A stretch of DNA of 63,965 nucleotides, counting the filler, from Hausera hauseri (lineage: Eukaryota), in the NCBI GenBank assembly GCA_046269625.1. It is 12 parts of 12 records of this genome, joined end to end, with 100 filler letters (N's around TTAATTAATTAA, not from the genome) between each part and the next. Parts side by side here need not be neighbours in the genome. Positions count along the whole stretch, not along the records: positions 8,250 to 14,525 come from JBJURY010118098.1; 11 more parts are not named here. One strand, given 5' to 3'. How positions within the stretch are numbered: position 1 is the first letter of the stretch; every line of letters begins with the position of its first letter. The notes under the pieces were generated by a model, which was not told the origin of the DNA, did no database searches, and was given only the letters and a program-made list of their open reading frames with translations. A program made the translations under genes and the position numbers. Below are positions 144-42,801 of this stretch, piece after piece.

Positions 144-1704
144 CTATTCGGTTTTAGTGCGGGTGAAACGTTGTGTGCCCTGAAAGAACTTTTCTCTGCT
201 ATACGTACTGAATGTCACTCGGCGTACCTTACTCGATGGATTTGTGCTGGGCAGTTGAGTTATATTTTGTGATGGAGATGATAGCGAAAATGAGTCAAGC
301 AAAAAGGACGATGCAATTGTAGGTGATGTAAGGTCATTTAGAAAATCGGTAGGAGTGCTAGTTAAGTTTGAGTTGGAGGTAGAATTCGCATCTGTACTGT
401 CGTCAATGAATAAAGCGGGCTTCAAATTCGAAACATGAACGCTGTAAGGTTTACCTTGGCGTAAGATGGTTGCTGTGTGAGATGACAGATTCAGCAGTTT
501 GTATGGACTAACATATAGAGGTCTAAAACCAGAAGGCGATTGATCCTTCAGCCATACAAACTTGGCGGAGTATACATACTTCGAAATATAGGATTTATTG
601 TTGTTAAAGAGACGACAGAATGAATCTGAGCTGACCTCGACGAAGTGAGATTGTACTGCACGAATGTTTTCGTTTGTGGGGTTGTCGTCGAGATCAGAAA
701 GTTCAAATAAGGCCCGAATTGGAGTCCCAAATAGTGCCTCGGCTGGAGCACAGTCGGTAGTGGTCGAAGGTGTGTTGTGCCACCCTAGTAGAATAAATGG
801 TAGAATGGACGTCCTATTGCGATGAGTGTCAGCCAAGATTTTTTAAGGAAACTTTCATTGCTCGATGGAACCTTTTAAAAAGGCCATTTGCTTAAGGATG
901 ATATGGAGTTGTGTGGAAATGGGATATCCCCAAATGTTTTACTAGCGATGTGAATAGTTCCGATTCAAATTGTCGACCTTGATCCGTTATTATGTAACGT
1001 GGGGAACCAAAATGACTGATCCAGATTTTTATAAATGCATCAGCTACTGAATCAGTGTTTGTTGAACGAAGAGGAACGGCTTCAGGCCAACGAGAAGCAC
1101 GATCCATCACAGTAAGGATATACTGATATCTGTTGTCAGCAGGTGAAGGGCCAACGAGATCAAGATGAACTGTGTGAAAGCGTGATGTGCAAGGGAAATG
1201 GTACAGCGGCGGTTTAAGGTGTTTGTTGATTTTGTATTTTTGACAGGCTATGCATTCTTTAACCCAGTTTTGTACATCTTTACGCATTGATGGCCAAACT
1301 ACATGACGTTGTAACAGGCGAAAGGTTGCTTTTGAACCTAGATGATGGAGTGAATGCGTACGAACGAAAGCTGGCTTTTGTAAAAGTGGAGCTAGAATGA
1401 TCTTTTTATTACCGGTATTCGACGTATCATAAGCAATGCCATCGATGATCTCGAAGGATTTAAAAGAACTAAGGAAGTCAGCAGGCGATTCATCTGCTTC
1501 TAAAACTTCGGATAAAAAAATCGGCTCAACAATGATGGAGCCAACCGACCTCGATAGAAAATCTGCTACCAAATTATCTGTGCGAGATGTATTCCAAGAA
1601 AAAGCTGAACGAAGACAGGTATGATATATATATCGCTCTTGCCTCGGTGATGGCTGTTTTAACGACATTACGTGCAGGAGGGGCTTGTGATCAGTTTGAA
1701 TCAC
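144..1704 (-). pseudogene. Gypsy integrase (HHCC zinc finger, rve core, GPY/F-type C-terminus)
   Basis: HSLHHLG...CIAC; VHLDLVGP...DRASRWPEAVP...TDQGRQFES...TTPYHP; YVSPYKL in ORF 144-836. Confidence 0.92.
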
Positions 1705-3014
1705 AAATGTACGAGAGAGAAGTAGATGTTTAAAATGTTTTACTGCAAGAACTATGGCGAGTAACTCACGGTCAAATGTTGAATAACGGCTTTCGGGTTG
1801 TGTAAGCTTCCTAGAGTAAAATTCTAAAGATTTATCAACCCCGTTGGAAATTTGGTGTAGTATTGCACCGGTGGCTGTGGTTGAGGCATCGGTGGTAAGT
1901 ATAAGATCTGCGTTGGGCTTTGGATAGGCCAGTATTTCGACAGATTTTAGGCCATTGCGTAAGTGTTCGAACTGAGTGACTAAACCAGGAGTTCAATGAA
2001 TCAATTGCCTCTTTCTACCGGATGATAAATGCGCAAAAGGTGCTGTGAGTTTAAAACAATGAAGTACATATATGCCGATAAAGTGGAGTGTGCTTAAGAA
2101 GCTTCTCATGTCCGTGGTAGTCGTTGGTACAGTTATGTTCTTCAATTGTTGTAGTCGATCCGGTTGTGGAGAGTGACCGTGAGGAGTGATGACGTGACCT
2201 AGGAAATTTACACGTTTTTGAAAGAAACGACACTTAGAGAAGTTGACTTGCAAATTTATGTGATGTAATCTGTAAAAGATAATACGAAGGTGTTCTTGAT
2301 GCTGTTTGACACACGCAGAGACAACTAATATGTCATCAATATATGTATGAACGAAGTCAAGGCCTAAGAGTACGGTATCAATGTGCCGTTAAAAAGTTTG
2401 AGAAGCACTACGTAAACCAAATGGCATAAAGACATATTCGTAGAGGCCAAATGGAGTAATGATAACAGGTTTTAGAATATCATCACGTGCAACCAGAATT
2501 TGATGATATTCTTTATGCAAGTCAATTGTGTAGTACGTGTTAGTGTTGGTAAGACTGTGCAGGATGTCATTTATAAGAGGTAGAGAGTAAGCATCCAGGA
2601 CTGTTAGGTTATTTAACTGACGATAGTCACCACACGACCTGTAAGTGCCATCTTTCTTTGTTACTGCATGCAATGGTGAAGCCCATGGTGATTTGGATCT
2701 TCGAATTATGCCAGCCTTTCGAGTTCACTGAACTCTGATTCAACCGCTTTTCGTCTGCGAGGTGACAGTGGCCTTACCTTTTGTCTGAGAGGTCTTTGAT
2801 GTTTGGTGACTATGTGGTAATAAGTTGGAGAATGCGGCTTGAAACTGATGTCCTTCTTAAGAGTGCGGAAGCAAAAAGTTTTAATGAAGGATTTAAGATT
2901 GGTTTCCAGCGATAAGAATGATGAAGGCATGTTAGTGAAAGAATCGGTGGCTGTAATAGACGTAGAATCACGGAACACTTTGTTAATGATTTTCGGTTCA
3001 ATTGGCTGTTTCAA
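1705..3014 (-). pseudogene. Gypsy reverse transcriptase and RNase H
   Basis: SPWASPLHAVTKKDGTYRSCGDYRQLN; MPFGLRSASQTF; YIDDILV (~2330-2345); TDASTTATGAILHQ; YSTFDRELLA (manual translation). Confidence 0.92.
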
Positions 3015-3035
3015 GACTGATTTGTTCTCACTTGA

Positions 3036-3632
3036 TCAAACTGAAAATATTGATGAGTTATTAAGCGTGTTGTTATCAGCCGATGAGGAGCATACAAAAT
3101 TGACATTTGAATGAACAGAGGAAGACAAGATGTCCGATTGGTCGTTTTGTGAGCACTGGTTAGTATTAGCAACGGAGTTTCTACGCAGGATGCATCTATG
3201 CTTACAGTCGACTAACAAATCGTATGCATCCAGAAAATTGGAGCCTATAATGGGCGATCTGATATTGGCTATGTGAAATTTCCAGGAGAAATTTCCTGGT
3301 ATGTTGGAGAATGTGAAAGACTGTTTAGTGTTACCTAAAATGTTCAGGGATTGACCACAGGCAGTGAAGCGTAGAGAAGAGAAAAATGTGTTAGATGTAG
3401 GAACGAAGGACAAAGGAAGGAGTGAAAATGCAGCTCCTGAATCGATGAGGAAGTTTATTTGTGAGGTGTCTCCCAATAACAGTTCAGCCTTCAACAGGAA
3501 GACTGCAAAGGCGGTGTCGAAACGGTCAGAATTTTGAGCAATATTGCTTATACGAGAATGTGCCGTGGTATCTGGTGCCGCGATTAGTTTTTTGAAGGAT
3601 TTGGAGAAAAGAAAGAGGCGGAGGAAAAGCAA
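3036..3632 (-). pseudogene. Gypsy aspartic protease
   Basis: FLIDSGAAFSLLP active site; IIGSNFLDAYDLLVD C-terminal motif. Confidence 0.88.
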
Positions 3633-3699
3633 GTAAATTTATCATTATAATGCTTACAAACAGACATACATAATCTAGCCCGTGAGTGAAACTTATTGT

Positions 3700-4480
3700 G
3701 ATAGCATCCCTTCGAAATCGCGTGTGATAAAAGCAAGTCATGCGTCCGCCAGGTAAAATGGATTGAGCAGAATGTCTCGAAATGCTTCTCTCCATTGAGG
3801 GTCTGGTTTTGCTTCGTCGAAGCCCATTAAGATTATTTAGTTGGGTGGTAATGGCCAGAATCGACTGCTGTAACTCGTCAAACTGTTGTTTTATCATTTG
3901 CAATTGTTGTGAAAATGAAGGATTATATGTGTGTGATGGTGTATGAGCGGTTGATGCAGCTACTGTTTGTGAATTATTAGATTGCAAAATGTCAAAACTT
4001 TTGCTTCCAATAAAGCGAGCTTTTAGAAGGCCCTTGAATCATCTACTACCGTGAGCAGCGCTCTGATGGAGGTTGACAAAGATGAAAGGAAATACCGACA
4101 AAGAAGATCGGCATTGTTTATAGGAGTGACACCTAAAAGCTCAGTTGAGAGATTGCAGTTTTCAGGAAATCCAATGGTTTCGGATTTCCGATTGCATGTT
4201 CATTAAAGTATTTCTGAGTTATGCTGTCAATGGAAGGGTCGGTGATATGCAGAACTGATTCATAAAGCATATCATATGGACTTGAAGAAGTATGTCAGTA
4301 AGATTGTTGATTTGCTGCTTGATATTAGCTGGAAGTAGTAGCAGCAGACTGTTCGCCGGCAAAAAGGAGTCTGTGATATGATTAGCTTTAAGCCATTGCA
4401 AATGGAACTGTAACCAAGTGCGAATCAAATTGGTTTTATCAAGAAAAAAATCCGTGCAAGGAAGACTTGGAGATGTAATT
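3700..4480 (-). pseudogene. Gypsy gag remnant
   Basis: CFYHTRF motif typical of gypsy gag C-termini; lies upstream of PR. Confidence 0.65.
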
Positions 4481-6008
4481 GGTGTGGGGTCGGCAGGACG
4501 ACGACGATGTCGGGTTTTTGTTAAATTTTAGGCGGAAGGATCAGGGTCTTATCCACCACGGATACGAAAATGGACAGTGAGAATCATTGAATGTTTCCCA
4601 AATACAAAGGATAACAGAGTCGGAAGGTAAGAGTTAAGCCATTGTGCATGCAATAAAAGTTGAATGAGCCGAAAAAGGAAGACAATGCTGAATAAAAGAT
4701 GTGCGCCGTATGTTTGCATGCAACCCTCAGTGTATATTTGTTTATTATTTAAAAAAAAATAAGGGAAAAGAGATGCAGAGTAGCGGGGGCGGACATGTTC
4801 GGTCCTTCAGATAAATAGTTTATTGAATGCGCCATATATATAGAAGGATATTCAATCATAAAATTACTTTGAAAAGTTGACTCTGACTCGTGTTTATCCA
4901 TCGAACACTGAAAATTTCATTTGTTTTATTATCTGGAGAATTTTGGCCACAATTAAAACATGCCAACACGTTTTTATCATCTTTTTATCGTCTGAATTGT
5001 GATAATCTTTGAATAAACTTTTCAAAATTGGCATTTGACAACGACTTGCAATATTATTATTAATATTTGATCGAACCTCGAGGCTGTTTCGTACAATTGA
5101 AGTATTGTACTGTTTCATTTTTGTTATAGTTAGAATGTCTCAATCCTGCCATAACTTCAAGTGGATTATATAAAAAATTACATCCGTCAAAAATTTGTTG
5201 TCCTAGTGATTGCAAACCTTCGGAATCCAACCATGATTCAATAAACACTATACAACTCTTAATAATATCAATTATTTGATTTGATGGATAACGTTTTGAA
5301 GACAATTTTAACCAAATGATTAATTCCTGAGTTCCAAAACATTGAATATGGGACAGGAGAAAATTGAAATTGGCCAGGCATTGTAAGATAAACTCATTTT
5401 CCTGATTATTTTCGATTAGATGAAATGTGATGGAGTGTAACTTTCGTTTTATTTCATGGATTCGTTTCAGATTAGTTAGAATGCATGTACTGTTGCAACT
5501 ATATGAAATAAAAATATGACGCTAATTTTGAATGTAGTTGTGTTAACACATTGTATCTGTCCGTAGCATATTGATGAATTTGTCGATGGTACCAAGATAT
5601 CTTTGAAAACATTAAATGAAGAGCTGAGTTACGTGTGTTACCAACTATCATTTCAGCATTTGGTAAAAAATGGCCAAAATGTGTTTTGTGATTCCTTTGT
5701 ATTGGTCCGTTGAGTACGTTCATGATATTTGTTAGATCGAGATGTACATCCGCGGTTATCACCGTGATACTTGTTTTGTCGTGATTTATTATTAGAAGAA
5801 AATTTGTTAATACCATTTGTTGAAAATCAACATTATTTCGGTGGTTGTTTAATGATATAAAAGCATTACTTTGATATAGAAATCTTCTGTGGTTCCATGA
5901 ATTGGATTCATCATAATAATAATCATGTCCTCTGTTTTGAAAATTATGGTAATGCGGCTGAAGTTGTGGATCTGCATAAATATTGGATGGTTGACTATAG
6001 AAATAATC

Positions 6009-7192
6009 TCTCTTCCCAATATTCCGGATTCCGATTGAGTCGTTCCAAAACATCGAATGCTTTTGCTGAAGAATAGAATTCGCCAATTTTGTAACAGTCA
6101 TTGGCAATCAATTGCAACAGACTAAAAAATTCAGCGGATGTTTTCATTTTCAAATATAATTCCCATGCATTTCGGGATTTCTTGTTCATTATGTAACATT
6201 TGGCTAACCAACTCAGGTAGACGTTTTTGATTTTTTCATCTCGATTTAACAGGAAAACTTCTTCGGCTTCTTTATACGTACCAACGGCTTTCGATTGTGC
6301 ATAATTGTAATTGAGCGTATCATCGTTGTTGAAATAGCTTTTGATCGAGTATAAATAAACCAAAACGTCCTCAAATTGTTTCAACAGAAAGAAACACGAT
6401 GCTATGCACTGTCGTCCGGGAATTGTATCACAGTCACTCGCCGATCCGCCAACTAATTGGAAATATTGTTGGGCTAATTTTAGATTTTCTCGAGATCCGT
6501 CTTCTTGCCCGCTAACAGCATTAACGACGCCTTTCAAAATATATTCCTGTAGTGTTGTTGGATCGACGTCTTTTATTAATTCGTATGCTTGCGTAACGTC
6601 ATTTAGTTGTAAATAATAAATTACTAAGTTTAATCGGACTTCCGATAGCGCATCAATTAACCCAGTTAGTATTTGTAAAGCACCATCACCGTTATGGAAA
6701 ACCGTTAGATTGTGTCGAAATAGATCTTTAGCAAATACGAACGATTGTGTTGAAATGTCGTAAAGAGCTTCAATTCGGATTCAGCAGCTTTGCTGTTGTT
6801 TAGTTTGAAATGATTGCATGCATTTAAATTGGTAGCAATTGCGCTATCTTAATAATGTTGAAGATGAATCTGAAGAAGTTCCTGCGACACATCATAATAA
6901 AACAATTTGTAGTAGCATAATGCAACATAGACGTTCAAGGCAAGAAAATCTCGATTTTCCAACAAAATTCGTTTGTAAACATCAATGGCTTCTTGATAAT
7001 GATTACGCAGATAATGAATGGACGCCAGTGATAATTGGTCTTCGATAACATCCTGCAAATTTTGATGGAACGACATTAGTCGACGTTCGTCATTGAATTT
7101 GTGCGATAAATGGAATTGCAGTCAGTTTTGGAGTCGGCTTTTCGGGGCTTTCTTTGCTGAAACATCGACTTCTTGGTACATTCCGAAAAAAA
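6009..7192 (-). pseudogene. TTC26: IFT56/TTC26 (intraflagellar transport TPR protein), internal fragment with a stop and frameshifts
   Basis: [52 protein letters not shown]; [22 protein letters not shown]; [28 protein letters not shown]. These closely match animal TTC26. In-frame TGA near 7124 and frameshifts between 6850 and 6650. Confidence 0.95.
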
Positions 7193-7621: not shown

Positions 7622-7909
7622 CACACAGGTTCCGTCTTGTAAATGGCATTTTTGATTCTCGGTATATAGTTTGGTGACATTGGAACATTACTTTCTGTAC
7701 TCGTATCTCCGATTTATAGAAATCTACGACCATTACATTCGATTCTACTCCTTTTCCGCTGTGGTATTCCGCTCCATTACAATGTCCATAATGCATGTCT
7801 AGCCTTTCAACCACTACTTTATGCCCTAATTATCTTTCCTGGTTGCATCTCTAGTTCCATACTATCCCATTTTAATCTTCCGGTTTCCCTGGCCTGCTTA
7901 CAATGCTGG
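7622..7909 (-). pseudogene. env glycoprotein fragment (copy D of the env-bearing element)
   Basis: QHCKQARETGRLKWDSMELEMQPGKII / VERLDMHYGHCNGAEYHSGKGVESNVMVVDFY; very similar to 14306-14525. Confidence 0.9.
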
Positions 7910-8149
7910 TGTGATAAAAGGTCAATAAACAGTACGGAAGTCGAATCATGACCGTACGGAAAATTAATTGGATAAATATCCGTTTGCGTAATTGTGTGTA
8001 TAATTTGGAACCTCTGTTTATGAATTAATTGAATTAATTATTAAATGTAAATTGGTTAAAATGGGATAATTCAATTAGAATGTAGAAATAAGGTACAACA
8101 ATTGTAAATAATTAGAAATCGGAATCCGGTCAGAATAGTATATAAGTAG
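7910..8149 (+). repeat. Possible LTR 5' part inserted into env copy D
   Basis: env homology stops exactly at a TGT start; the following sequence is AT-rich, non-coding, with TATATAA near 8139. No second copy to confirm. Confidence 0.3.
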
Positions 8150-8249: not shown

Positions 8250-8791
8250 AAATTTTTCAGATTATTCCAAATTACAATCTTAATTTAAATTTAAATTTTA
8301 AAATTGTATCTGATTCAAATTTAGAACTTCTGTTAACAATTATATCCTCACATGGATGAAGTCAGAAATTATAACTCGACGAAAACACTGAAAATAGAAG
8401 GTGAAACGAAATTTGTAATCAGCTGAAGATTGACTTATATTGATATTCGACTATTGATCTTTCGTGGCGAAATTGTACTAATTGTTCTGAGTTTATTAAA
8501 GGGCATATTTTGAGATCCTTTTTTTAAATCACATAGTTTTCCATCGCTTCATAAAAGCGATTTGATTATCCTAGGTTTAAAATCATTACTGTAAACTCTA
8601 TAGATAATAGAAGATTTGCTTAAACATTCGCACAGGACCGCAATTGAGTACCAGCATTACTAACTAATAATAGAGGAGGTACATTCTGTCTATTCGATAA
8701 CGATAGACCGATCTGCAATAAGATATCAAAATTCAAGTGTAATTATTGCTATAAAGTGGGAATTGAGTAAGGGCCACCTCAATGTATAACA
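8250..8791 (+). repeat. Putative 5' LTR (truncated by contig start)
   Basis: Ends in ...GTATAACA two nt before a TGG-starting PBS and ~170 nt before gag. Confidence 0.55.
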
Positions 8792-8793
8792 TT

Positions 8794-8810
8794 TGGCAAC
8801 CCTAGCAGGA
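8794..8810 (+). promoter_or_regulatory. Primer-binding site, probably tRNA-Arg type
   Basis: TGGCAACCCTAGCAGGA resembles the TGGCGACCGTGACAGGA Arg-type PBS of gypsy elements. Confidence 0.6.
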
Positions 8811-8962
8811 CAGTTTGTACCTTGCTAGACTTTACTTTTGAGAGTTAAATAAATACATACCGGCGAACAGCGCCATTTACACCGAGTAAATTGATATAGT
8901 TGGAGCTGAAAATTAAATTGGGTATATAGGCTATTGCACGGGATAAATAACGTTATTTTTAA

Positions 8963-10471
8963 TTGAGAACGAATACTGATATGTTAAAAGCCAACCTTGT
9001 ATTAAAAGATAACTCACTCATATGTGAAACACGTCGAAATATATATAGAGATACACAAAATGTAGATAAACGCTCAAATTCAGAGAATGGAATAAAGTTA
9101 GACGTCATCGAGCAAAACAAGCAATTCAAAATCCCACTTGAGAAGCATAAAGTCAATAAAACAAATTTAGAGAATAATATGGCAGCAATTAACCCTCCAG
9201 TAGCGCAAAAACTAAACATTTTTACTTTTGACTCTCTGAACCTGCCGGCATACGATGGTGATCCAGGCGAGCTTAATGAATTCTTGAGAACTTATAAATT
9301 GCACGCAGAAGGTGCTAGCCTTACTCCCGAGGTAATGATTAAACGCTTGTCGTTATATTTGAAAAATTTAGCCGCTGACGCTTATAGCGAGCTCACAAAC
9401 GACGAGAAGAAATCTTGGTCCTCCATAATAGGAGCATTAAATCGTAAATTATTTCCGACAGTAACGCCACAACAAAAGCTCATGGCATTTCAAAATATAA
9501 TGCCACAAAAGGGTGAATCAGTAACCGAGTTTGCATTTGCACTGAAGAAACTCGTTAATAGTTACGTAAGAACCTTATAAAGTGTTTGTGTAGCAAAAGC
9601 TAAAACAGAAGCAAAACGCGATGCTGCGGAAAAGGCAGCCCCACCAGATTTAGACGTCATGATGAAAACTCAATTGATTAATGGTATTTGGTCCCGAGAT
9701 TTAGTTAAACAATTGATTTTAGCCAGACCTGAGAATTTCGAGAAAACTCTGCAATTAGCCCAAGATTTAGAAACGGCACTCGATAGATACGCCAGACATA
9801 ACGAGAGAAATAATGATCGAAATGACCGTACCGATAGAAATCGGAATGACAATCGTGGAAGGAACGATAGACGATTTAATGGAAATAGAAATTATGAAAA
9901 TATAAATAGTAACAATGATTACAGAACTAGTCGAAACAATGGTTACGTTAACGACCGAAACATGAACAAGTCAAATTCTTACTCGAATAGAATTCAAGGA
10001 AACTACAAAGGTTCGAACTATTTAAATCGCGACGATGATAATCAAAATAACGATAGCCGAAGAAATGTAGATAGTACAAAAGGTTTGTAGAATCAGTACA
10101 ATAGAAGTACGAATAGACCTAAGTCACCTCTGAATGAAGACGGTCGACAAAGAGTCGTCAGAAACGGGAATTTAGTTTCTTTCACTTGTGTAAAAGAAGG
10201 ATATATTTCACGATCATGTCCAAACCCGCGTGTCGTTTCGTTTTCCGAGCCAAACAAGACTAGTATGATTAGAGTTAACGAAAATTTAGACACCAAGTAT
10301 AGTGTTCGCGGAGATACAGGCACTATTATGGACATACAAGACTTGCGAAAATTTCTAGACGTTCAACCTGAGACTACTAACCCACAAATTTTTATGGCTA
10401 GAAAAGAATACGGAGATAAGCTAAGACTATTAGAAGTATATCATGGTTTAGCAGAACCAGAAACGGACTAG
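8963..10471 (+). pseudogene. gag, copy A (capsid domain, N/R-rich linker, degenerate CCHC)
   Basis: LPAYDGDPGELNEFL...LYLKNLAADAY...QKGESVTEFAFALKKL. ORFs 8963, 9659 and 10265 share one frame separated by point stops. FTCVKEGYISRSC is the decayed knuckle. Confidence 0.9.
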
Positions 10472-13400
10472 GAGCCTGCGATAGCACCCAAGCGAATTGA
10501 TATGATCGCAAGAGTGTTCCGACAATCAATAAAATATCTGACCAACCAGGAAACTTGACAGAAGTCGACTTAGACGTAGAGCCTGAGTTCGCAGTTGAAA
10601 AAGTGGATAAGTCTACCGATTACGACACAGAAGAAAAATAATTTATGGAACCATTAATACTTAAAATTACGAAAAATAGAAGCCGTAGCTCTTTCCTAAT
10701 AACAAAACGAAGAAGTCGTTCACGCTCCAAAGTAACTACAGAGAAAATTGAAGGAACGGAAGATCCGAACATCGTTGTAGAAGGCGACGCGGACCATAGT
10801 TTGAATACACCAGAGATTGGTCTACTCTCGCCTGTCGGGTGGGGGGGAGTCTGTAGATTCAGTTAATAAAATTAGTGAGATTTGCCCACTTTCCATTAGT
10901 GAGGAATAAACGGAAAATATTGTTGATTTTGACCCAAGAAAGTGGAAAGTCCGACGTTCATGGAAAAATGCCGATGAGCTAAAGTAAATGAGAATTAGGT
11001 GTCACGACCCAGAAATCCTGCAGCGAAACTTAGAAAGGCTTAAGCAAATTAGCGAACAAGTAGATATATCCGGAAAAGAACAACAGTATACTGAGAAATT
11101 ATATAAAAGTCTAAAATTATGCAGTGAAGGCAAACTCGATGAAGCAATCGACTTAAAACAACCTGAAGAAGTATCATTTGAAACGTTGTAAAAATGGAAA
11201 CAGGAATTAGAATCATGGATTAAAAGTGGAGTCAAATTTTTGGAAGGATAGAGCAAAAACGAAGATAGTGTCAACGTAAAAGTCGCTAAAGCTGAAACAC
11301 TATTGTCCACCCTAGAAGCAAACCCGAAACTGAAGAGAGTAATCCGTAATTTATAACGTATGATGGGCGAAATTCGCTGTACAATGATTAATCGGCTTAG
11401 GGAAAAACCGGTTAGCCATCGAAGTAATATCGATTTGGAAATATTGGGCATAGACCCTGTGGATATTCCTTCCCTCGTTGAGATGATAAAAATCGCATTT
11501 GCTGTACTTAGACAATATACAAACCTAGAAAACCGAATCAAAACGGAAAATGAAAGGCGAGCGCCGATTTACAGCCGCAGAAACCGAATCGTGTCCCCAA
11601 ACCATAAGGAGATTCAATACGTAGTAAAGGCTTGTATAGTAGAATTGGACGAATATAAGGGCGAGTTTAGTTATGTCGGCCGGATTATGAATTTTCTAAG
11701 AGGGCCGGATGATGAGTTAAAAGATGCATATAAAATGCTAGATAAGGCTATAACGGCAAAGCCAGTAATTGCCAATCAATTGTCGAAGTAGTCCGAATTA
11801 GTAATGCGATTAAGCAAATTAGTGGAAAACCGAAAGAAAGAATTTCCAGAAAGCGAGCCTTCTGTAAAGAAACAGTTAAAAGAAAGCGCACGTAATTTAG
11901 ATACCATACTAGCAGAAATAGATATCCGAACGAGATTCGAAGCATTACGACGACTTAATTTTATGAAGAAGAAACATGAAGCGACGATACTGGAAGAGAT
12001 CTATAAAATGGTCGAAGAAATGAATTTGACAGAGAAGCGAAATATGACTTTCAATTTTTACCCAAGATTGAGAAATGTCCGACTAGAGGGACTTCAACAT
12101 CTAGCACATAAACCTATCAATGAGATTTCTGCTCAAGATATTGAAACTCTAGACATCTGTCCGGAAAACCGAGCCGCTTTAGCGTACGCGACCGGATGGC
12201 CGGATCGGATCAGAATTTCCATACCGAGTTGATAAAGATAAGAAATAACCAACGTCTTAGTTTTCAGGAATCTAAGTTCGTAAGGAAATTGTTGGATGCA
12301 ACGGATCCCGACTCAAAAGTCATAAATAAAATGTATGGGATAGCCTACTTATTGGTACAAATGGCGGAGATTAATGATGCGAAGATGATGCAATTGATGC
12401 CAAAATTACAGCAAGTAAAAGAAACATGTATCAGAACAAAACAAAGATCAACGAGACTAGATGAACTAGCAAAAGAACTCGAAATTTAACGAAAAAAATA
12501 TGCTTTTACGGAATCGGAAATCAAAAATAAGCGAGAATTCGTACAAAGATGGCAAAAGACGTAATTATTGAATTAACAGATTACCACGAAAAAGGACTCA
12601 TTAATTCTAATGAATTAGATGAATTACTGAAAATGATTCAGTATGCCTGCGGAAACGGAATAGGTTTCCGAACTATGCAGATGAAAGAAATACAACCAAG
12701 ATTGAAAGAAATTCGAGATAAAACGAATACAGCCTTAGTAGACTATGGACTTCCGGATGTTGGAAATGAACCAGAATGGGATGCGCACTTAGATGCAATA
12801 ACGGCCGAAAATACCATGACTCCAGTGCAACTAAACGAGGTAGAAACATGTCCGCAGGACAGGAGGTTCAATGTGGAGATGCTCCTGGATTCAGCGCTAA
12901 CTGAAAAAGATTTAATCGAACTAATTAAGGTAAATATTCCTGAAAATAAGTTAAGATAACTCATTCTGACTTTAATTAAATTATCTTCTGAGAATACAGT
13001 TTACAGCGCGGTGCTGAAACTTTTGATAAGGAAATATACTAAACCTGAGGTAACTACGAAAGTAAAAATATCATCCGAGTGGATGGATGAAAAAGAATAT
13101 GAACCAACCACTTATTCCTATGTAAGGGTCGTAACAGAACTGTTGATAAATAATGGTGGAACAAATGAGTTAAAATATAGATTCTACTTTAGAGATAAAA
13201 TACTGGACGATTTAGAACAGTTAATAGACCTTGGCATTATACCCGACGAAACAAAGTGAATAGTGGTAACAATAGCTAATGAGAAGATTAAAGAACAAAC
13301 CACACGTAAGGTTAAGGCAGAACAATGCGTAAGACAAATCATGGGAGTCGGAGATGCCGCCATGTATTTTGAGTGCTTACAAACGTATGAAGACAAGGAA

Positions 13401-13985
13401 CAATACGATAAGAATTTAGTGCCACTGAGTGAAACGATAACCAATGTCCCAAGACAGAAACGCCCAGTCGATAGACCTAAGAAGACACGAGAAGAAGCTG
13501 ACTATAATGGAGAATCGATTGGAGAATTGAGACAGATGCCGATTCCTACCTAATGAAGAATTAAGCGAATTCATGAAGAATTTAATATATGAATTGTAAA
13601 TTATTCAAGCCTTCGAGGCGACACATTAGACGATACAGAGAATGCGATATTTAATGCAGCTAGGATAATGAGAAGTTCACGTTTTAAATTATCAAAAAGT
13701 AACTTAAATGATGAATCGGTGATCGAGAAGATCATGGTGGAAAACACCGCTGAAGAATTAAGAAATGTATTAATGTGCTTAGCTATCAAAATGAACTCTA
13801 ATAGAGAAAATGAAATTAATAGAGCTACAAGCTTGGCACGTAGAGCGGCTAGAAAGCTACCCTGCGAAGTAAATTTGTCGAGATAATTCGATAATGAAGA
13901 AGACAAACCGTTCGATAATAGTAATAGTCTCGAAGATATGTTATGTAATTTGACAACGACAGATAATAGTAACCGGAAAAACGAA
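10472..13985 (+). pseudogene. Unknown ~1,150-aa K/E-rich region X, copy A
   Basis: Successive ORF pieces homologous to 24000-27710 and 49490-50447. Confidence 0.8.
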
Positions 13986-14525
13986 TCCAATTGGTTAATC
14001 AGCTTACTCACTTTGATAATGCTAATAAAGCAAATAGGTGCTGTTACCGTCTACGATTGCGATAAGTTTAAACTAGGACAGAAATATTCTCTAATGGACT
14101 TAGAAGTATGTGAGGACGCCAGACCACATAAAGTGGAGACAAAGGAGAAAAGTTACTTCTTATACCAAGATCAAGAATTAATATCGTTGGATGGGATGGA
14201 ATGTATGTTGAGACGATCTTGTAGCATTTTCACTGTGGTCTAATGCACGGACATTCGTCAATAATCAAACTAACAACTCCTCCAATTCCGATGAACTTGG
14301 AACGCCAGCATTGTGAGCAAGCCAGGAAAACCGGAAGATTAAAATGGGATAGCATGAAACTGGAGATGCAACCAGGAAAAATAATTAGAACACATAAAGT
14401 AGTGGTTGAAAGGCTGAACATGCATAATTGACAAAGTAATGGGGCCGAATACGCCACCGGAAAAGGATTAGAATTGAATGTACTGGTTGTAGATTTTTAT
14501 GAATCGGAGATGCAAGTACAGAAAG
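13986..14525 (+). pseudogene. Chuvirus-like glycoprotein N-terminus, copy A
   Basis: Hydrophobic signal WLISLLTLIMLIKQIGA, then VTVYDC...YSLMDLEVC...ECMLRRS..IFHCG..H.HSSI. Confidence 0.85.
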
Positions 14526-15156: not shown

Positions 15157-15229
15157 GCCCGGTTAGCTCAGTCGGTAGAGCATCAGACTTTTAATCTGAG
15201 GGTCAAGGGTTCAAGTCCCTTATCGGGCG
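15157..15229 (+). tRNA. tRNA-Lys(UUU)
   Basis: 73-nt canonical GCCCGGTTAGCTCAGTCGGTAGAGCATCAGAC-TTT-TAATCTGAGGGTCAAGGGTTCAAGTCCCTTATCGGGCG followed by an oligo-T Pol III terminator. Confidence 0.96.
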
Positions 15230-17112: not shown

Positions 17113-17185
17113 CGCCCGATAAGGGACTTGAACCCTTGACCCTCAGATTAAACGTCTGATGCTCTACCGACTGAGATAACCGAGC
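17113..17185 (-). tRNA. tRNA-Lys(UUU), degenerate copy
   Basis: Reverse complement of the 15157 gene with three substitutions, including U33->G in the anticodon loop and a D-stem change. Confidence 0.8.
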
Positions 17186-19008: not shown

Positions 19009-20150
19009 TTTATATTAGTTTCACTGGCGAAATTAGAATGTACAACGCTGTGTGTGTGTTACAGAACGTTTCGAAACTTTAAGTCTAAATTTTATTAGGT
19101 TCCCAAGCGCGTAGAACCTTGAAATTTTCTGGAGAGATGCATTTTTGTCCCTATTTTGATAATTCGTCGTTGAAATTTGAAAAATATTTTTTTAAGTATT
19201 TTTTAATATTTTTTTTTGTTTTTTCTTTTCGGAACTTTAAGTTTAAATTTAACCGTGTTCCGAAAAGCGTAGATGTTTGAAATTTTCAGGAGAGGTACTT
19301 CTTTGTCCCTATTTTTCGAATTCGTCGTTAAAATTTTTAAATTATTTATATAAGTACCTTTAAATAATTTTTTTTTGGATTTTTTTCTCTCGAGTCCTTC
19401 AAAACTTTAACATAAAATTTCAGCGACTTTACGAGGACGCACAGGTTTCAAATTTTCTGGAGATATAAATTTTTGTCCCTATTTTGATAAATCGTCGTTG
19501 AAATTTGAAAAATACTTTTTTAAGTATTTTTTTTTAATTTTTTCTGTTTTTTCTTTTAGGAACTTTATGTCAAAATTTTACCAATTTCCGTAAGGTGTAT
19601 AGCTTTGAAATTTTGAGGAGAGATAACTTTTTGTTCCTATTTTTCGTATTCGTCGTTAAAAGTTTTAAAATATTTATATAAGTATTTTTAAATATTTTTT
19701 TTCTATATTTTTTTTCCTTGAAGCCTTCGAAACTTTAACATAAAATTTCGCAGAATTCCCGACGGCGTACAACTTTCAAATTTTTATCAGATATCATGTT
19801 CTGTCCCTATTTTGATATTTCGTCGTTAAAAGTTAAAAAATATTTTTTTAAGTATTTTTTTTTTATTTTTTTCTGTATTTTCATTATAGAACTTTAAGTT
19901 GAAATTTAACCAATTTTCGAAATGCGTACAGCTTTGAAATTTTCATTACAGATGCTTATCGGTCTCTATTTCGATAATTCGTCATTAAAATTTTAAATTT
20001 CGGTACATTAGTATTTTTTATTTATTTTTAATTAAGAGTCTGTTTTCGACCTTCTGAATTAAATTGCGTAACCAATCAGCGTTGTCGTATTCCCTCCTCC
20101 CAAGCTCCACGTGACAGAGACGTATTTTACGTCACGACGTAATGTTCTAG
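19009..20150 (+). mobile_element. Non-autonomous Helitron/Helentron-like element with internal tandem array
   Basis: TTTATATTAG start, (TG)n microsatellite, six ~164-bp units, perfect hairpin TTACGTC-AC-GACGTAA (20127-20142), then CTAG (20147-20150). Confidence 0.6.
19073..20030. repeat. Tandem repeat, ~6 monomers with alternating 158/170-bp period
   Basis: AACTTT anchors at 19075, 19233, 19403, 19561, 19731, 19890; conserved CCTATTTT and TCGTCGTT cores. Confidence 0.92.
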
Positions 20151-20289: not shown

Positions 20290-23245
20290 CATGTCTTTTC
20301 ATAGCTTATTTCTCGGTATTCTACAGTCCGTCTTTGTTTCGATTTTGTCAGTTACTGTTCGATTCATCACTTCTCACGCAATTATTTGCTTCAGAAATTA
20401 TGCACCTGCTATATTTTTTTATTTGTTATGCCTTTTCTGAATGTTTACCGTTTAATTTGGTATTTTTTCTATACATTTCATATGATTTTTTAGTTTAGTA
20501 AATTACTGTTCGAATAATAACTTCTCATACATTGGTGAATACGGCTGTATATATTGTGTGATGCCATAAGACCGTAGTGCGACAAACCAAACCCATACAT
20601 TATATGTTCCATGGCGGTTTTCGTTCAAATTTGCTTTTGTAATCATGCACTTTTCACCTGCTACATTTTTATTTGTTCATGACTTTTCTCAATGTTTACC
20701 CTTGAACTTAGAAATATATATATATATATATATTTTTTTTTTTCCATTCCTTACATGTACTTTACATTCCTTTATGAATTTACTGTTGCTTTGAATAATT
20801 ACAAAAATTATTAACTTGCATTTGTTGTTTAGATTTATTTCAATATACATTTAGATTTTCATTTTTTTCAATGATTTGAATTTCTTTGCTGTAGTTTTGA
20901 ATAATTACATAACTTAAAGTGAAAGAAATCCCCCTCCCTTACAATTTTTAATAGTGATGAAAGATTGATTTCAATTTAGATTTATAATTTAATTTTTTTA
21001 AATGGTCTGATTATATCTGCTGTTGCTTTTAATAATTATACAAATTAATATCATGAATTTGTTTCCCCCCCCCTTAACAAAATATTTTGAATTACGTACA
21101 AAAGTGTGTTTAAATTTGAAATTAAATTTCCAAGCATTATTTGCATCCGTTTGAATAAAATTTTAAAGATTGCTGTTTCTCCCCCCCCCCCCCCCCCACG
21201 ATAAAAACCTATTCCAAAGCTCGGGGGGGGGGAGGAATATACTACCTGCTTCAATTTCTTTTTTTCTATTCTTCTTTTCTTTACATTCTAACAATCTTTG
21301 GTATGGATTGTAACTGCCTTTAACAATACATGCAGACAAATTTACAAAAAAACAGACATTTTTCTGGTGAAACCGTCTACTACACGCTTAGCTTTTCCTT
21401 ACAGTCTGATAGTGTTTGGTACCCAGTGGTCAATTTCGTTAATTTGGGAATGGCATTACTAGATGTTTCTCTTTCTCATGATGCATGCATCTACTAGATG
21501 CTTCGGTTACTTTTTCCCGAGTCACAAATATGTTCTTGATCATGTTTTTTGTGTCCTGACATATTATTGGACAGTTTTGTTACGTTACTTATCCTTAGTA
21601 ATAATTGGATCCAGGTACTTAATTGCAGTTTTTACATACGGTGACTCTTCTCACTTTCTGTATCGTTAATTAGGGAATGGCATTACTAGATGTTGAGGAT
21701 TTTCCGATCCAGGTACTTAAAAGTACTACAGTTTTTACATAAGGGGATTCTTGACACTTTCAGTTTCTTGCACATAGTTTTCATGGTCTCTGATTTTTTT
21801 AGGGAATGGCATTACTAGATGTTTCTCCTTCACATTATGTTTGTGTTACACCAAAGTACAAATCTTTCTTTTCCCTTTATTACAATGCCTTATGATTTGA
21901 GGTTCAGTCCATTTAAAATGTTGCATCGGTTCTTCTCCAGTAGGCATCAATCTGCCTTCGGAATACATTCTTTGCTGAGGTCGTATGAAGAATATGTATT
22001 TCAGTGTTTTAAAAATTCTTTAATACCCTTTACCTAATTTCATGCGGTTATTTCCAAAAGTGTTGAGAATAGCTGAGTTATTAATTAACGATAATGCTTC
22101 ACAAAAATACAAGCCTTATAATTAAATAAATTTGCGTGAGAAGTGATGAATCGAACACTAACTGACAAAATCTAAACGGGTTACAAAGACGGAATGTACA
22201 ATACCGAGAAATTTGGAGAAACCATCTACCAGACGCTTCCGTTCTTTTTCCCCAAACTTCAAATATCTTCTTAATATTCTGTTTCGTGAGTTTAACTAAT
22301 GCTTTTTCTATCCCCCTCCCCCCAAAGGTACAAATCCTTTCCCACGATCGGGGGGGGGGGGTGTATACTTCATGCTTCAATTTCCTGGTACTTATTCCTA
22401 CCATAGTTTTTACATGTGATATTCTTAACATTTTCAGTCGCTTCATTAGATACATAATGAAAATTTCCCACTGTGACTTTCTTTTACTAAAATAAAAAAA
22501 CATATGAAATGTATAGAAAAAATTCCAAATTCAACAGTCAACATTCAGAAAAGGCATAACAAATAAAAACATACAGCAGGTGCATAATTTCTAAAGCAAA
22601 TATTTGTGTGAGAAGTGATGAATAGTTACAATCCATACCAAAGATTGTTAGAATGTACAGAAATGAATAATAGAAAAAAAGAAATTGAAGCAGGTAGTAT
22701 ATTCCTCCCCGCCCCCCCAAACTTTGGAATAGATTTTTATCTTAGGGGGAGGAGAAACACCATGAGGTATATACTTCCCCCCCCTCTGAGCTTGGGCAAG
22801 GATTTTTATCCTTTGGGGGGAGGGGGATACAAAAAAACATTAGTTAAACTCACGAAACAGAATATTAAGAAGATATTTGAAGTTCGGGAAAAAAGAACTG
22901 AGGCGTCTGGTAATCATGTTTTTTGTGTCCTCACATGTTATTGGACACTTTTTTTACGTTACTTATCCTTAGTAATAATTGAATCCACGTACTTAATTGC
23001 ATTTTTTACATACGGTGACTCTTCTCACTTTCTGTATCGTTAATTAGGTAATGGCATTACTAGATGTTGAGGATTTTCCGATCCAGGTACTTACTAGTAC
23101 TACAGTTTTTAAATAAGGGGATTCTTCACACTTTCAGTTTCTTGCACATAGTTTTCATGGTCTCAGAATTTTTTAGGGAATGGCATTACTAGATGTTTCT
23201 CCTTCACATTATGTTTGTGTTACACCAAAGTACAAATCTTTCTTT
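20290..23245. repeat. Mosaic of direct and inverted repeats
   Basis: 21541-21870 repeats directly at 22915-23245; 22228-22370 is inverted at 22766-22911; 21190-21315 is inverted at 22625-22745; parts of 20290-20480 are inverted at 22130-22620; AATGGCATTACTAGATGTT occurs five times. Confidence 0.85.
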
Positions 23246-23377
23246 NNNNNNNNNNNNNNNNNNNNNNNNNNNNNNNNNNNNNNNNNNNNTTAATTAATTA
23301 ANNNNNNNNNNNNNNNNNNNNNNNNNNNNNNNNNNNNNNNNNNNNTTCTAGCACGCCTGGAGAATTTTGATAAGACA

Positions 23378-24007
23378 TTGCAATTAGCTCAGGACATAGA
23401 AATGGTATTGGATAAATATACCAGAAAAAACAACAGAAGTGATGGAAATAATGATCAAAGTGATCTAAGCGATAGAAATCGGAATGATAGAAACGCTAGA
23501 CGATTTAACAGGAATTATTGGGATTGTAATAAGAACGGTAACTATGATCACAAAAGTAATCGCTATGGTAATCGGAATTTTGATAATAGCCGAAATAGTT
23601 CATCTAGTAAACTAAACTACAATTCGGATAGACGCCTAGATAGCTCTAGAAATTTTAACAATGGAAATCGACAGAATGACAGCCAAAGTTATGATAGTCG
23701 CCAATATGGGGACTCCAGACAAGCCCCGCAACATCAGAATTACAATAGGAATTTGAGTAGATCGAAATCTCCGGTTAATGAAGACGGTCGACAAAGGGTC
23801 GGCAGAAACGGCAACTTGATTTGTTATACATGCGGGCAAGAAGGACACATAGCGAGATCCTGTCCAAACCCACGAAGCGTTTCGTTTGTTGAGCCTAGCA
23901 AAACCAATGTAGTTAAAAATGAAAATCTAGAAGCAATTTACGGTGTTCGTAAAGTCACAGGTATGATCATTGCGATACAAGACTTACGACGTTTTTTAAA
24001 GATCTAA
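23378..24007 (+). pseudogene. gag C-terminus with CCHC zinc knuckle, copy B
   Basis: CX2CX4HX4C motif after an N/R/D-rich linker. Confidence 0.9.
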
Positions 24008-27000
24008 CCTGACATTAAAGACACTAAAGTCTTAGTGGCCATAAACGAGTACGAACATAAGTTACGATTACTAGAAGTTTACCACGGCATGCCTAAACCG
24101 GAGACGGAATATGAACATTCCATTGCCCCGCCAAGGGTTATTGATATGGCACGGAAACAACATTCCTACGATAAACAAAGAGTTAGACGAAACAGGAAAA
24201 CTTGAGACTCCGGATGAGGTAGATTTAGATGTAGAACCAGAATATATGATAGAAAAGGAAACCAAAAGGCAGAAACCGACGAAAATAAAGAATTTTTGGA
24301 ACCACTAATACTTAAAATTACAAAGAATAGGGGCCGTTGTCCATCACTGAGACGAAAACGCAAGGATCTTTCGAGATCCCCAATGATTAAGGAGAAATCG
24401 GGCACAAAGAGAAAAACTAAAATCGCGTTTGACAGCAACACAGAGTTCGCTCTGAACACTCCGGAAATTAAATTAGTTACTCCCGGCGAAATGGATGAGC
24501 CAACGAAATCTGTAAATGAAATAAACGATATATATCCTTTACCTACTAACGGAGAAGAAACAGAACAGGAGTAGAAACTCGATACTGAAAAGTGGGAAAT
24601 CAAACGCTCGTGGAAAAATGCCGCCGAATTAAAAAGAATCAGAACAAATTGTCTCAACCCACAGGTAATGCAACAGAATTTAGACAAACTCAAAGCAATA
24701 AAGCAGCAAGTGGATATCTTGGGGAAGGAATAGCAGTTTGTAGATAGATTATATAATAAAATGAAATTATATAGTGAAGGTAAACTAAGCGAAGCTATAG
24801 ACTTAGATCTGCCTGAAGAAGTGGCAAAAGAAACACTAGTTCGGTGGGAACGTGAGTTAGGATTCTGGATGAAAAGTGAGATGAAATTCCCGGAGGCGTG
24901 GGATAAAACTATCCAAGACATTGAAGCTAGAATCAACCAAGCTCAGTCGCTATTAACTACATTAGAAGCCAACCCGAAATTAAAAGGAGTAACACGTAAT
25001 TTAGAGCGTGCCATGAATGGAATTAGATTTGTAATAGTCGAACGACTCAAGGGAAAACCGGTCAAGGAACGAGATACAGTTGATCGAGAGATGTTTGGTG
25101 TAGACTCAATAGGTATTCCACCCTTAATGGAGATAATAAAAGTCGCTTCTACGGCATCAAAACAATACAGAAGTCTGGAAAATCGTATTAAAAATGAGAC
25201 CGAAAAACGGTCGCAAATATATGGTCTGAGGAATAGAATTATGCATCCAAATAATGACGAAACACAGAAAATAACTATGGCTTGTATGCTGGAATTCGAC
25301 GAATATAAAGACGAGTTCGACTACGCCCGTCGGGTCATTGATTTTATTAAAGGTCCAGACGACGAGCTAGAAGACGTTCACAAAATGTTAGACAAAGCAA
25401 TATTGGCAAAGCCAGAAATCGCTAATCAGTTGAACGATTGATCTAAAGTAATAACAAGGTTGAGTAAACTAATAAACAGTCGAAAAAAAGAATTTCCGGA
25501 GAGCGAACCTACAGTAAAGAAGCGATTAGACGAAGACGCCCGAAAGCTAGATACGATGAAGGCAAAAATTGACATCCGAACTCAATTCGAGGCATTGCGT
25601 CGATTGGAATTTATGGCAAAGAAATAAGAAATAACGATACTAGATGATATATACAAGATTATTGAAGAAACTAACTTTATGCGGAACGCAATGCAACCTG
25701 CTACTTTTATCCGCGATTGAGAGATGTCCGCCTGAAAGGAATACGGTATTTGACAGCCAAGCCTGTCGAGGAAATCTCGATTCGAGACCTTAGAACCTTG
25801 GACTTTTGTCCCAAATATCGATCAATCGTTGAAAAAGCTGTGAAGTTCTTACACCAGCCACAAGAATAGATGGACGGAGCGGATCAAAGGCATCACACCG
25901 AACTAATTAAAATAAAGAATGATTCCCACCTTAGCTTTGAAGAAATCAAATTTTAAAAAAGTTATTAGATGAAATAGATCCAGATTCAAAAAGTATTAAC
26001 GAGATGTATGAACTAGCGCTGCTGATGGTGGAAATGGCGAAAATTAATGACGAGAAATTAAGACAATTGTTGTAGCAGATACAGCAAGTCGAAGAAACTT
26101 GCATTAAAACTAAACAGAGAGTGATAAAGTAAGACGAACTAACTAAAGAATTTGAAGTCTATAAAAACAAATATGCCCTTGCAGAGGCAGAAAGGTCTGA
26201 CAAGTCACAATTCTTACAGAGATGGCAAAGAGATGTCGCTTCCGACTAACACACTATCAAGAACAAGGACTGATTTCGGCTAAAGAATTATGTTCGTTGT
26301 TAACCCTGCTGCACCAAACTTCTGCTAATGGGCGTTGTTTCCGGATAACGAAAATGGTCCAAATGCAGCAGAAACTACAAGAACTCAGAAAAACCATATG
26401 GACCGCAGTTGTGGATAGACCAGCTGATGCACCGTCAAGAGCTATCAACTGCCGGGTAATAAGAACGAACCAAAATGGGAGGCATATTTAGATGCAATGA
26501 TTGCCGAAAACCCGAAAACTCCCATACGATTTAGCGGAACGGAGATATACTCTTCGGACCAAAAATTCAATGTGGAAATGTTTCTGGACCCAGCACAAAC
26601 CGAGAAAGATTTAACTAAGTTAATTAATGTAAACCTCACCGAAACTCCATTAAGACAGTTAGTCCCCACTCTAACCAAATTAGCAATCGAAGGTACCATT
26701 TATAGTGCGGCACCTAAGCTTTTAATTAAAGAATATGCTAAATCTTGTAGGAAAAGGTAGAGGAGACGATCATAGTAAAGGTAGCATCCGACAGGATGGA
26801 TGAGAAGGAACATGAATTTAATACGCGCTCTGTTGTGAGAGATGTATTAGTATGGATAAAGAGCAATGTATACACCAATGAGCTAAACTATAGACTTTAT
26901 TTTAGAGGAAGAATACTAGACGAATTAGAATTATTAATAGAAGTGGGAATTATTCCGGGTGGAGTAAACCGGATAGTGCTAACAATTCCTACCGACGAGA

Positions 27001-27437
27001 CAAAATAAGAAGCCATAAGGAAGGCCAGAGCGGAACAGTGGGTAGGTCGAATCATAGGAGTGCAAGACGCAGCAATGTATTTCGAATATCTGCAAACCGA
27101 CGAAGACAAGAGACAATACGATAAGAATCTAGCGCCAACCAGTGAGGTCGCACCAACTGTAATGAAACAGAAGCGTTCCATCGGTAGACCACGGAAAACG
27201 CAAGAAGAAATCGATTATAATGGAGACTTAATCAGAGAACTGAGGCAAATGTCCATATCAACCTTCAGCACCGATGACGAAGAAGTGAAGGAACTCATGG
27301 AAAAGTTGATACGGATAGTGAACCACCCTAGTCTCGGTGGCGATATACTGAGCGAAAAAGAAAAAGCTATATTTAACGCAGCCAAAACTATGAAAAGTTT
27401 TCGTTGTAAATAATCCAGAAGTACCCTAAATGATGAA

Positions 27438-28276
27438 ATGGTAATTGAAAAAATTATGGTAGAGAACACCGTAGAGGAGTTAAGGAAAGTGTTACTATAT
27501 TTGGCCGTTAAAACCAACCCGGTCCGAGATAACGAATTCAATAAGGCCATTAGCTTGGCGAGGAAGGCTGCCAGAAAACTACCACTAAAAGTGAATAGGC
27601 CTAAATTGTTTGAAAGAGAAGAAGAATGGCAAAATGGGTCCTTCCTTGGCAATAATAGAGTTGAAGACTTGTTACGGAACGTAACCAGAGATAATATAGG
27701 AAACGAGTCAAACTGGTTAATTAACTTCTTAATTATGATGATGTTAATAATACAGATGTGGGCAGTTGCAGTGTACGACTGTGACAAATTTAGACGCGGA
27801 CAAAAATACTCATTAATGGAATTAGAAATGTGCGAAGACGCGAGACCACATAAATTAGAAACAAAAGAGAAAAATTACATGCTATATCAACAATGCGAAC
27901 TAGTTACATTAGATGAAGTAGAATGTATGTTGCGACGATCTCGCAGCATTTTCCATTGTGGACTAGTACATGAACATTCACCCATAATCAAGCCAACCAC
28001 CCCACCAATCCCGATGAATTTAGAACGCAAGCATTGCAAGCAAGGTAGAGAGACGGGAAGAATAAAATGGGACGGCATAGAATTAGAAATTCAGCAAGGG
28101 CAAATAATCAGAGTGTATAAAGTGGCTGCTATGGTGCAGAATACGGCACTGGAAAAGGATTAGAGTCAAACATCGTAGTGGTAGACTTTTACGAAATCGA
28201 GATGCGCCTACAGAAGGTAATGTTTCATAGCGTTACTAAACTTTACACAGAAAACCATAAGTGCCACATTTCAGAT
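27438..28276 (+). pseudogene. End of X fused in frame to the chuvirus-like glycoprotein, copy B
   Basis: One ORF runs VIEKIMVENTVEELRKVL...NWLINFLIMMMLIIQMWAVAVYDCDKF...ECMLRRSRSIFHCG. Confidence 0.88.
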
Positions 28277-28459
28277 TGAAAGGCCTTGGGCAGACTCAGA
28301 AATTTCCGTGGAGTATATCCATTGGATAAAGTCCCCGACTATCTGCTCAATGGAGNNNNNNNNNNNNNNNNNNNNNNNNNNNNNNNNNNNNNNNNNNNNT
28401 TAATTAATTAANNNNNNNNNNNNNNNNNNNNNNNNNNNNNNNNNNNNNNNNNNNNTATT

Positions 28460-42100: not shown

Positions 42101-42801
42101 ATCGTGATACGATAGATCCAAGGATTGTCTTAGGAAAAATTCAACTATCATTTTCACACAAATTTCCGAATGACGGCTATTTAAAACATGATATCGTAAA
42201 CATCGCAATGTTGCAACTCTCGGTGATTTATATTGACTCCATAAACAATATTTAATTAATGAGTAAATGGATATCATAAAATGGATATCATAGACCAATA
42301 CATTCAAATAAGAAATACATGTTTCCAAATCATATTCAAAGTCATCATTGCAAAATTGTGATAAAATTTTGGCATAACTAATTACAGCATCATTAGACTT
42401 TTAATTTTTGCTAAATCAAAACTATTTTCCTTATCACTACGTCCTACTTTTATTACTACATTGATAAATGAATCTGATTTATCACATATTGTGAACATGA
42501 CAAAAGTGTAACGATTTGGGTTGTTGAAAGGTAAATTTACATTAATAGGCAGACAGTGATGTGGGTAATAGTCGCAGTGTGTTCCAAAAACAAAAGTCTG
42601 ACTAACCAATGTCGTTCGATTAAAAATCACGGATTTGTGTCCCGAAATGCATGAAAGCCAATCGTATGATTGCTGACACCAATTATAATGATCTGCGGCC
42701 GAAGAGTTCTTAAAATTATTAGCAAAAAGTATAATAATGTCAGGTTTAACCTGCATTTTTGGGTGCATGGAAAACGACTTTGATATTTCCAGAGGCACCA
42801 A
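39174..42801 (-). pseudogene. RICTOR: RICTOR (mTORC2 subunit), divergent; a 962-aa ORF with frameshifted flanking pieces
   Basis: VATLRCLRY; ERIPAMRL; ILHSWPGFL; IRQYTTKFLRVLLR; LLKQIHD...AIDVLQEAC; LPPHPYG; in the next frame ELRAHMLVVSHLST...SLNVR...GANILQEYDW...WPLL. Frame changes at ~42390 and ~39480. Confidence 0.9.

Follow-up and report, generated by a model that had tools for sequence, protein, structure and literature searches.

A stretch of 63,965 nucleotides of Hausera hauseri DNA (assembly GCA_046269625.1), termed here the window, contains several degraded copies of a retroelement with the gene order gag-X-env-pol, X denoting a long region between gag and env. Comparison of these copies with one another, with further members of the family and with unbroken relatives in databases makes it highly probable that their ancestor produced Gag, X and Env within a single polyprotein carrying a predicted internal signal, probably with Pol as well. 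By their sequence, the copies are decayed env-carrying elements of the Ty3/gypsy group, with a CX2CX4HX4C knuckle in Gag, then protease and a gypsy-type reverse transcriptase (RT). The layout itself is already published, for the Burro elements, and its decayed copies here are ill suited to a test of processing. Few retroelements make their capsid and fusogen from a single frame and arrive in this way at enveloped particles, in contrast to retroviruses with their spliced env; the window element would bring one more family to that group. As far as we surveyed the literature, it reports no test of how such polyproteins are processed.

Copies of the element and probable continuity of the frame

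In the window, short contigs follow one another, separated by N-spacers, the join carrying TTAATTAATTAA. Self-comparison revealed three related stretches on separate contigs (A, B and C), with about 65% DNA likeness, plus a small env fragment (D):

8250-14525 (+): copy A, from self-comparison
23346-28355 (+): copy B, with gag end, X, signal and env start, 10 stops and 8 frame changes, from self-comparison and frame-aware comparison
50447-45478 (-): copy C, whole stretch, from self-comparison
7626-8018 (-): fragment D, an env piece on the contig preceding copy A, 86% identical to A 14302-14525

Since A, B and C each occupy a contig of their own, we regard them as independent insertions of an animal repeat family and not as an array. 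Protein identity is 55-57% for the A/B and B/C pairs, and a frame-aware pairwise comparison of A with B aligned 1,575 codons at 56% identity. Gag-X-env is represented in A and B and X-env-pol in C, which starts at the end of X, so that gag to mid-X is covered only by A and B. The individual parts, including the open reading frame (ORF) of copy B, are as follows:

8250-8811 (+): likely 3' part of the copy A 5' long terminal repeat (LTR), CA end at 8790-8791, from sequence
8794 (+): TGG start of a primer-binding-like site after the likely LTR end, from sequence
8981-10250 (+): copy A gag, start at 8981 or 9179, with capsid, N/R-rich stretch, degenerate zinc knuckle (10178-10219) and two stops
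10251-10870 (+): linker after the nucleocapsid, holding the gag-X junction; copy A frame changes near 10499 and 10834; pN/pS 0.40
10871-13040 (+): X, charged, predicted all-helical, ~720 codons, holding the breaks shared by A and B at 11789 and ~12559
13041-13270 (+): likely ubiquitin-like domain, from weak PDB, Pfam and profile matches
13500-13880 (+): conserved helical domain before the signal, from the A/B comparison
13884-14048 (+): X-env junction, with a stop private to A (13884), signal-like segment, hydrophobic core from 13992 and predicted cleavage before VYDC (14049)
14049-14525 (+): start of the copy A env ectodomain, ended by the contig edge, with one frame change near 14226
27414-28163 (+): copy B open frame across the X-signal-env junction, first ATG at 27438
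47376-50428 (-): copy C X end, signal, env ectodomain (VYDC at 49423), transmembrane segment (TM; 47825-47769) and cytosolic tail
45478-47430 (-): copy C pol (protease and RT), directly 3' of env, with one frame change in the overlap 47430-47376

In copy B, 249 codons run uninterrupted from X through the hydrophobic segment into VYDC. The original prediction had described ORF 27438-28163 of this copy as open from X to VYDC, and the same junction in A and C as in frame with single stops at different codons; both descriptions were borne out, the open frame of B beginning slightly upstream of that ATG, and A and C continuing in frame across one stop each, at 13884 and 49588, three codons apart. 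Over the longer span, the differences between A and B indicate that one frame, running through gag into env, was under purifying selection: pN/pS (the ratio of nonsynonymous to synonymous differences) is 0.19-0.45 in all nine regions from the capsid end to env, and a third-position excess of differences is found in each of the nine, both junctions included. Values are 0.33-0.34 in the helical part of X and 0.22 in the domain before the signal.

Where A and B can be aligned between capsid end and ectodomain, strong hydrophobicity is limited to the segment preceding VYDC (19-residue hydropathy peak of 2.06 in A and 2.31 in B, at most 1.28 elsewhere); copy C shows the TM at 47825-47769 and a weaker hydrophobic segment behind it. 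Over the 85 codons that separate B 27456 from the hydrophobic core, A, B and C have no ATG in common. Signal-peptidase sites follow the -3/-1 rule, and the A-x-A or A-x-T with which the hydrophobic segment ends before VYDC in all three copies fits such a site. Signal cleavage before VYDC, and the membrane topology, are what we infer from these features.

Unbroken relatives were sought among 1.84 billion representatives with the end of X and the env start of copy A; this query included 470 residues of X, the first half of X lying outside it. All 18 matches fell on the signal and env start, and none on the 470 X residues. Ten relatives were examined, comprising the nine longest matches and one 4,844-residue cluster member, with nine short matches set aside. 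A YDC or FDC motif occurs 150-893 residues from the called start in all ten, a hydrophobic segment above threshold just before it in nine, and Gag in the same ORF as env in three (P0010, P0011 and P0021). Env runs into protease within one ORF in eight of the ten, and four continue through RT, RNase H and integrase. A word-based protein search for longer relatives of P0001 and P0002 found none, and the region of P0011 between its ubiquitin-like domain and signal retrieved only itself. The 4,844-residue member, P0027, is a very Burro-like env-pol polyprotein with seven protease-like stretches and with ankyrin and C2H2 domains; further hydrophobic segments follow its integrase.

The earlier proposal of one ancestral frame through gag, X and env is thus supported by the junction in B, by pN/pS, by other copies of the family (described below) and by unbroken relatives in which a single ORF includes both Gag and env. 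Its length of more than 2,300 residues also agrees with the copies, as arithmetic only: 1,782-1,848 codons of A plus ~524 of C, counted up to where the env tail frame ends, give ~2,300-2,370.

In the pathway we envisage, Gag-X would be made in the cytosol, the hydrophobic segment would send the class III ectodomain into the endoplasmic reticulum, signal peptidase would cut before VYDC, and the TM would stop transfer, returning the env tail and Pol to the cytosol. The element's own protease would free the mature parts; until cut, Gag-X would be tied to the membrane by the signal remnant, a tether that would link capsid to Env in equal amounts. We attribute every break observed to decay after insertion.

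Coinciding breaks and possible other routes to Env and Pol

The original prediction further held that the remaining disruptions differ between copies, which is not correct as written. Over the A/B comparison, A has 14 stops and 7 frame changes and B has 10 and 8, most of them private; A and B nevertheless have stops of differing type at one codon of the alignment (A 11789, B 25439), and two pairs of frame changes lie no more than 20 nt apart, one of the same sign (A ~12559, B ~26232) and one of opposite sign (A ~10499, B ~24158). The shared stop and the same-sign frame change sit inside X and the opposite-sign pair at the gag-X junction, sites that copy C does not reach. Chance would give 0.08 same-column stops if stops were uniform, and more among mutation-prone codons; of the shuffles, 38% contained one or more pairs of frame changes no more than 20 nt apart and 7% contained two or more. 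Because chance is not negligible for such coincidences, other copies of the family were examined, using one public sequencing run in which the family is abundant, with 16,411 contigs aligned to A, most of them less than 95% alike. At the stop at 11789, 57 contigs, amounting to 1880 of 1935 depth units (97%), differ from A inside the codon; 27 contigs cease fitting A at 12556, and 20 do likewise at 12194, next to the frame change near 12190 that A does not share with B; additional letters are present at 10505-10508 in several contigs. At each of the three sites it is therefore copy A that deviates, and independent decay is the best reading of the coinciding breaks. The prediction had named as evidence against itself a stop or frameshift conserved at one position in all copies between gag and env; at face value the A/B pairs are of this kind, but other family copies differ from A. 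The contigs are short and come from one run, possibly the window's own source, with rows that are not linked by contig.

Several points weigh against a single frame extending from Gag into Pol. Every copy in the window is interrupted somewhere, and gag to mid-X is spanned by A and B alone. Two breaks of this pair coincide, and the counter-evidence comes from that one run of short contigs, whose indel table listed nothing, missed the control and is not to be relied on. The pN/pS values derive from an alignment chosen for protein likeness, with pS near saturation. Likeness to the relatives extends over env (~30%) and RT but leaves out the long helical X; each relative is an ORF call on one contig, and two come from the same cluster. 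Continuity of env with pol rests on these relatives, copy C having one frame change between env tail and protease. Finally, one YAG common to the three copies (B 27573) is a possible splice acceptor.

Were a programmed frameshift or read-through in X, or at the gag-X junction, to set the ratio of Gag to Env, the shared A/B breaks would be its trace: a same-codon stop, a same-sign frame change and a second near-coincidence at the gag-X junction all conform to this explanation, two such pairs arising in 7% of shuffles. Yet the stop types of A and B differ, the gag-X pair has opposite signs, the frame changes land at different places when the alignment is denied a cheap joint move, and other family copies depart from A at all three sites, which leaves this mechanism very improbable. 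Somewhat less so, but still unlikely, is a continuous frame from which most Env is nonetheless made through a message that is spliced or has an internal start, as in insect errantiviruses, the signal then acting as an ordinary N-terminal one. Such a message would accord with the common YAG, ~140 nt upstream of the hydrophobic core, with in-frame ATGs common to the copies at B 27390 and 27456, and with a core that is short and like that of a cleavable signal. The YAG, however, lacks a tract rich in pyrimidines (0.4-0.5), and its conservation may be no more than that of the codons; selection extends across the junction, and long in-frame leaders are retained in the relatives.

Many gypsy elements reach pol by programmed frameshift. 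A precursor ending after the env tail, with Pol obtained in that way, would be exactly the 2,300-residue protein of the original prediction, and the single change of frame between env tail and protease in C is in its favor. Against it, the overlap of C (47430-47376) contains no canonical slippery heptamer, C is heavily decayed elsewhere, and env shares an ORF with protease in most of the relatives. We consider this ending doubtful, and conclude from the relatives and the missing slippery site that the ancestral protein probably included Pol; the proposed Gag-X-Env precursor thus very likely was one frame from Gag to Env, within a product that probably extended further.

Domain content and comparison with known elements

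Matches to Gag, Env and Pol are distributed among the copies. The capsid of A matches Retrotrans_gag (Pfam E 0.018, below cut-off), and its gag matches Gag of the relative P0011 (E 7e-15); the single canonical CX2CX4HX4C knuckle of B is recognized as zf-CCHC (Pfam E 8e-8). Env belongs to the Monjiviricetes fusion glycoprotein family of chuvirus/gB type (Pfam PF24664; C, E 4e-33; B, E 2e-9 from residue 103), the ectodomain start of A being 73% identical to that of B; a PDB sequence search with env returned no match. Pol of C yields RVP (E 2e-6) and RVT_1 (E 2.5e-37) in Pfam, and its RT is 43-51% identical to those of four env-bearing database elements with protease, RT, RNase H and integrase. 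Beyond the RT, where C ends on a cut contig, neither RNase H nor integrase was matched. Depth of family contigs at 8250-8459 and 8670-8879, in the likely LTR, is far above that of the flanking stretches, and the copy A contig holds no second LTR.

After the knuckle come a charged linker, helical X, the ubiquitin-like domain, a helical domain and the signal. Helical X, with no significant Pfam or Foldseek match over its ~720 codons, is the part that may be new; a low-confidence AlphaFold model of its first half is all helical. The likely ubiquitin-like domain upstream of env is suggested by matches that are weak but concordant, all below curated cut-offs: five of six PDB matches are ubiquilin-type domains of this fold (best E 0.021), Pfam gives ubiquitin in C (E 0.044) and UBX in B (E 0.035), and profile comparison with the ubiquitin-like domains of relatives gives a match probability of 47%.

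The domain before the signal (13500-13880; 64% A/B identity) occupies the place of a Bcl-2-like domain in Burro and in three relatives, whose own Bcl-2 matches are weak (P0019, E 0.001; P0011, E 0.055; P0012, E 0.2). In these three the weak matches come with a GGW-type motif directly before the env signal. No Bcl-2 match to this domain of the window copies was obtained from Pfam, profile comparison or Foldseek, the profile probability against the relatives' Bcl-2-like segments being 0.3%, similar to that of decoys. Its model contains seven predicted helices at a predicted local distance difference test (pLDDT) score of ~45-55; both AlphaFold models, of this domain and of X, are poor (pLDDT 39 and 45), and Foldseek found no match to either at E 0.001, a viral Bcl-2 at rank 44 (E 1.2) being noise. 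The copy B domain gave no usable match in the Atlas.

Burro/GYPSM1 elements, planarian gypsy-like LTR elements, are described with env in frame between gag and pol in one polyprotein, in which Gag, with two or three CCHC knuckles, is followed by a long region bearing Smc-like and ubiquitin/SUMO-like parts and a BCL2-like motif; their env matches mononegavirus fusion proteins, their MATH, BIR and ankyrin cargo varies among members, their size is near 30 kb and their copies are very many (Arkhipova and Yushenova 2019, PMC6431247). The window element is similar in its abundance of copies, in having env in frame with gag, as judged by comparison of copies and relatives and not from an intact copy, and in having, on weak matches, a ubiquitin-like domain upstream of env; it differs in its one knuckle and in giving no MATH, BIR or ankyrin Pfam match in the pieces scanned. 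This likeness is drawn from the published description. Given the differences in cargo and in the number of knuckles, we describe the element as Burro-like without filing it as Burro. In the structural polyproteins of alphaviruses and flaviviruses, RNA viruses with class II fusogens, an internal signal likewise lies between a cytosolic capsid and a luminal fusion protein. The resemblance to these viruses drawn in the original prediction is a fair analogy, without homology; the nearest precedent is the Burro polyprotein.

Chary and Hayashi (eLife, PMC13524379) report GAG-ENV-POL 'ancient errantiviruses' with an HSV/gB-type ENV in Nematoda, Bryozoa and Platyhelminthes. These share with the window element Ty3/gypsy pol, the order gag-env-pol, a chuvirus/gB-like env and its flanking by a signal or first TM and a C-terminal TM (in the window, from PF24664 and hydropathy), and, by eye, short motifs are common to copy C and the env of their Smed_errantivirus_1. 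Intact copies were retained in that study, in contrast to the decayed ones here; in the part of it considered, a shared gag/env frame is not stated and a long X is not described. Nematode endogenous retroviruses are likewise described as Metavirus-type elements with env before pol (Sacco et al. 2022). In Atlas virus, of the Belpaoviridae, Gag, Pol and Env form one 2,828-residue polyprotein (bioRxiv 10.64898/2026.03.22.711591). Unlike the window element, it is of BEL/Pao type, with env last and of the class II, phlebovirus-like kind. Identity with Troyka, which is described without env and with a CX2CX8-10HX4C knuckle, was rejected, the window element having env and a canonical knuckle. The nematode retroviruses mentioned above reportedly possess a continuous gag-env-pro-pol ORF and are said to be nematode-restricted. 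Our literature search retrieved no further relevant paper on Burro or on gag-env-pro-pol elements.

A more far-reaching scenario, which we regard as speculative and improbable, is that the element represents a distinct, very high-copy lineage of Burro type, possibly with a host outside planarians, in which the 720-residue helical X would be a new viral scaffold replacing the matrix protein. Held at the membrane by the internal signal, X would tie capsid to class III fusogen one to one, beside ubiquitin-like and deeply diverged Bcl-2-like modules.

Other features of the window

A second, unrelated and decayed gypsy-type element lies at ~150-4100 (-), with gag knuckle, protease, RT, RNase H and integrase recognized by eye and no env seen; its RT is 32% identical to that of copy C. 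On the same strand, ~5000-7000 holds a frame-broken, apparently intronless copy of a tetratricopeptide repeat-like gene, likely a processed pseudogene, which we take to resemble IFT56/TTC26. An uninterrupted frame of 986 codons at 39440-42400 (-) encodes three RICTOR domains, an intron-free length notable for an animal gene. Two tRNA-Lys(TTT) genes, at 15157-15229 (+) and 17113-17185 (-), face each other and are 92% alike. A tandem array with a unit of ~160 bases occupies 19069-20029, in an AT-rich stretch. Inverted and direct repeats nested in one another, 90-330 bases long and 85-96% alike, fill 20308-23245; these are possibly foldback elements or resemble miniature inverted-repeat transposable elements.

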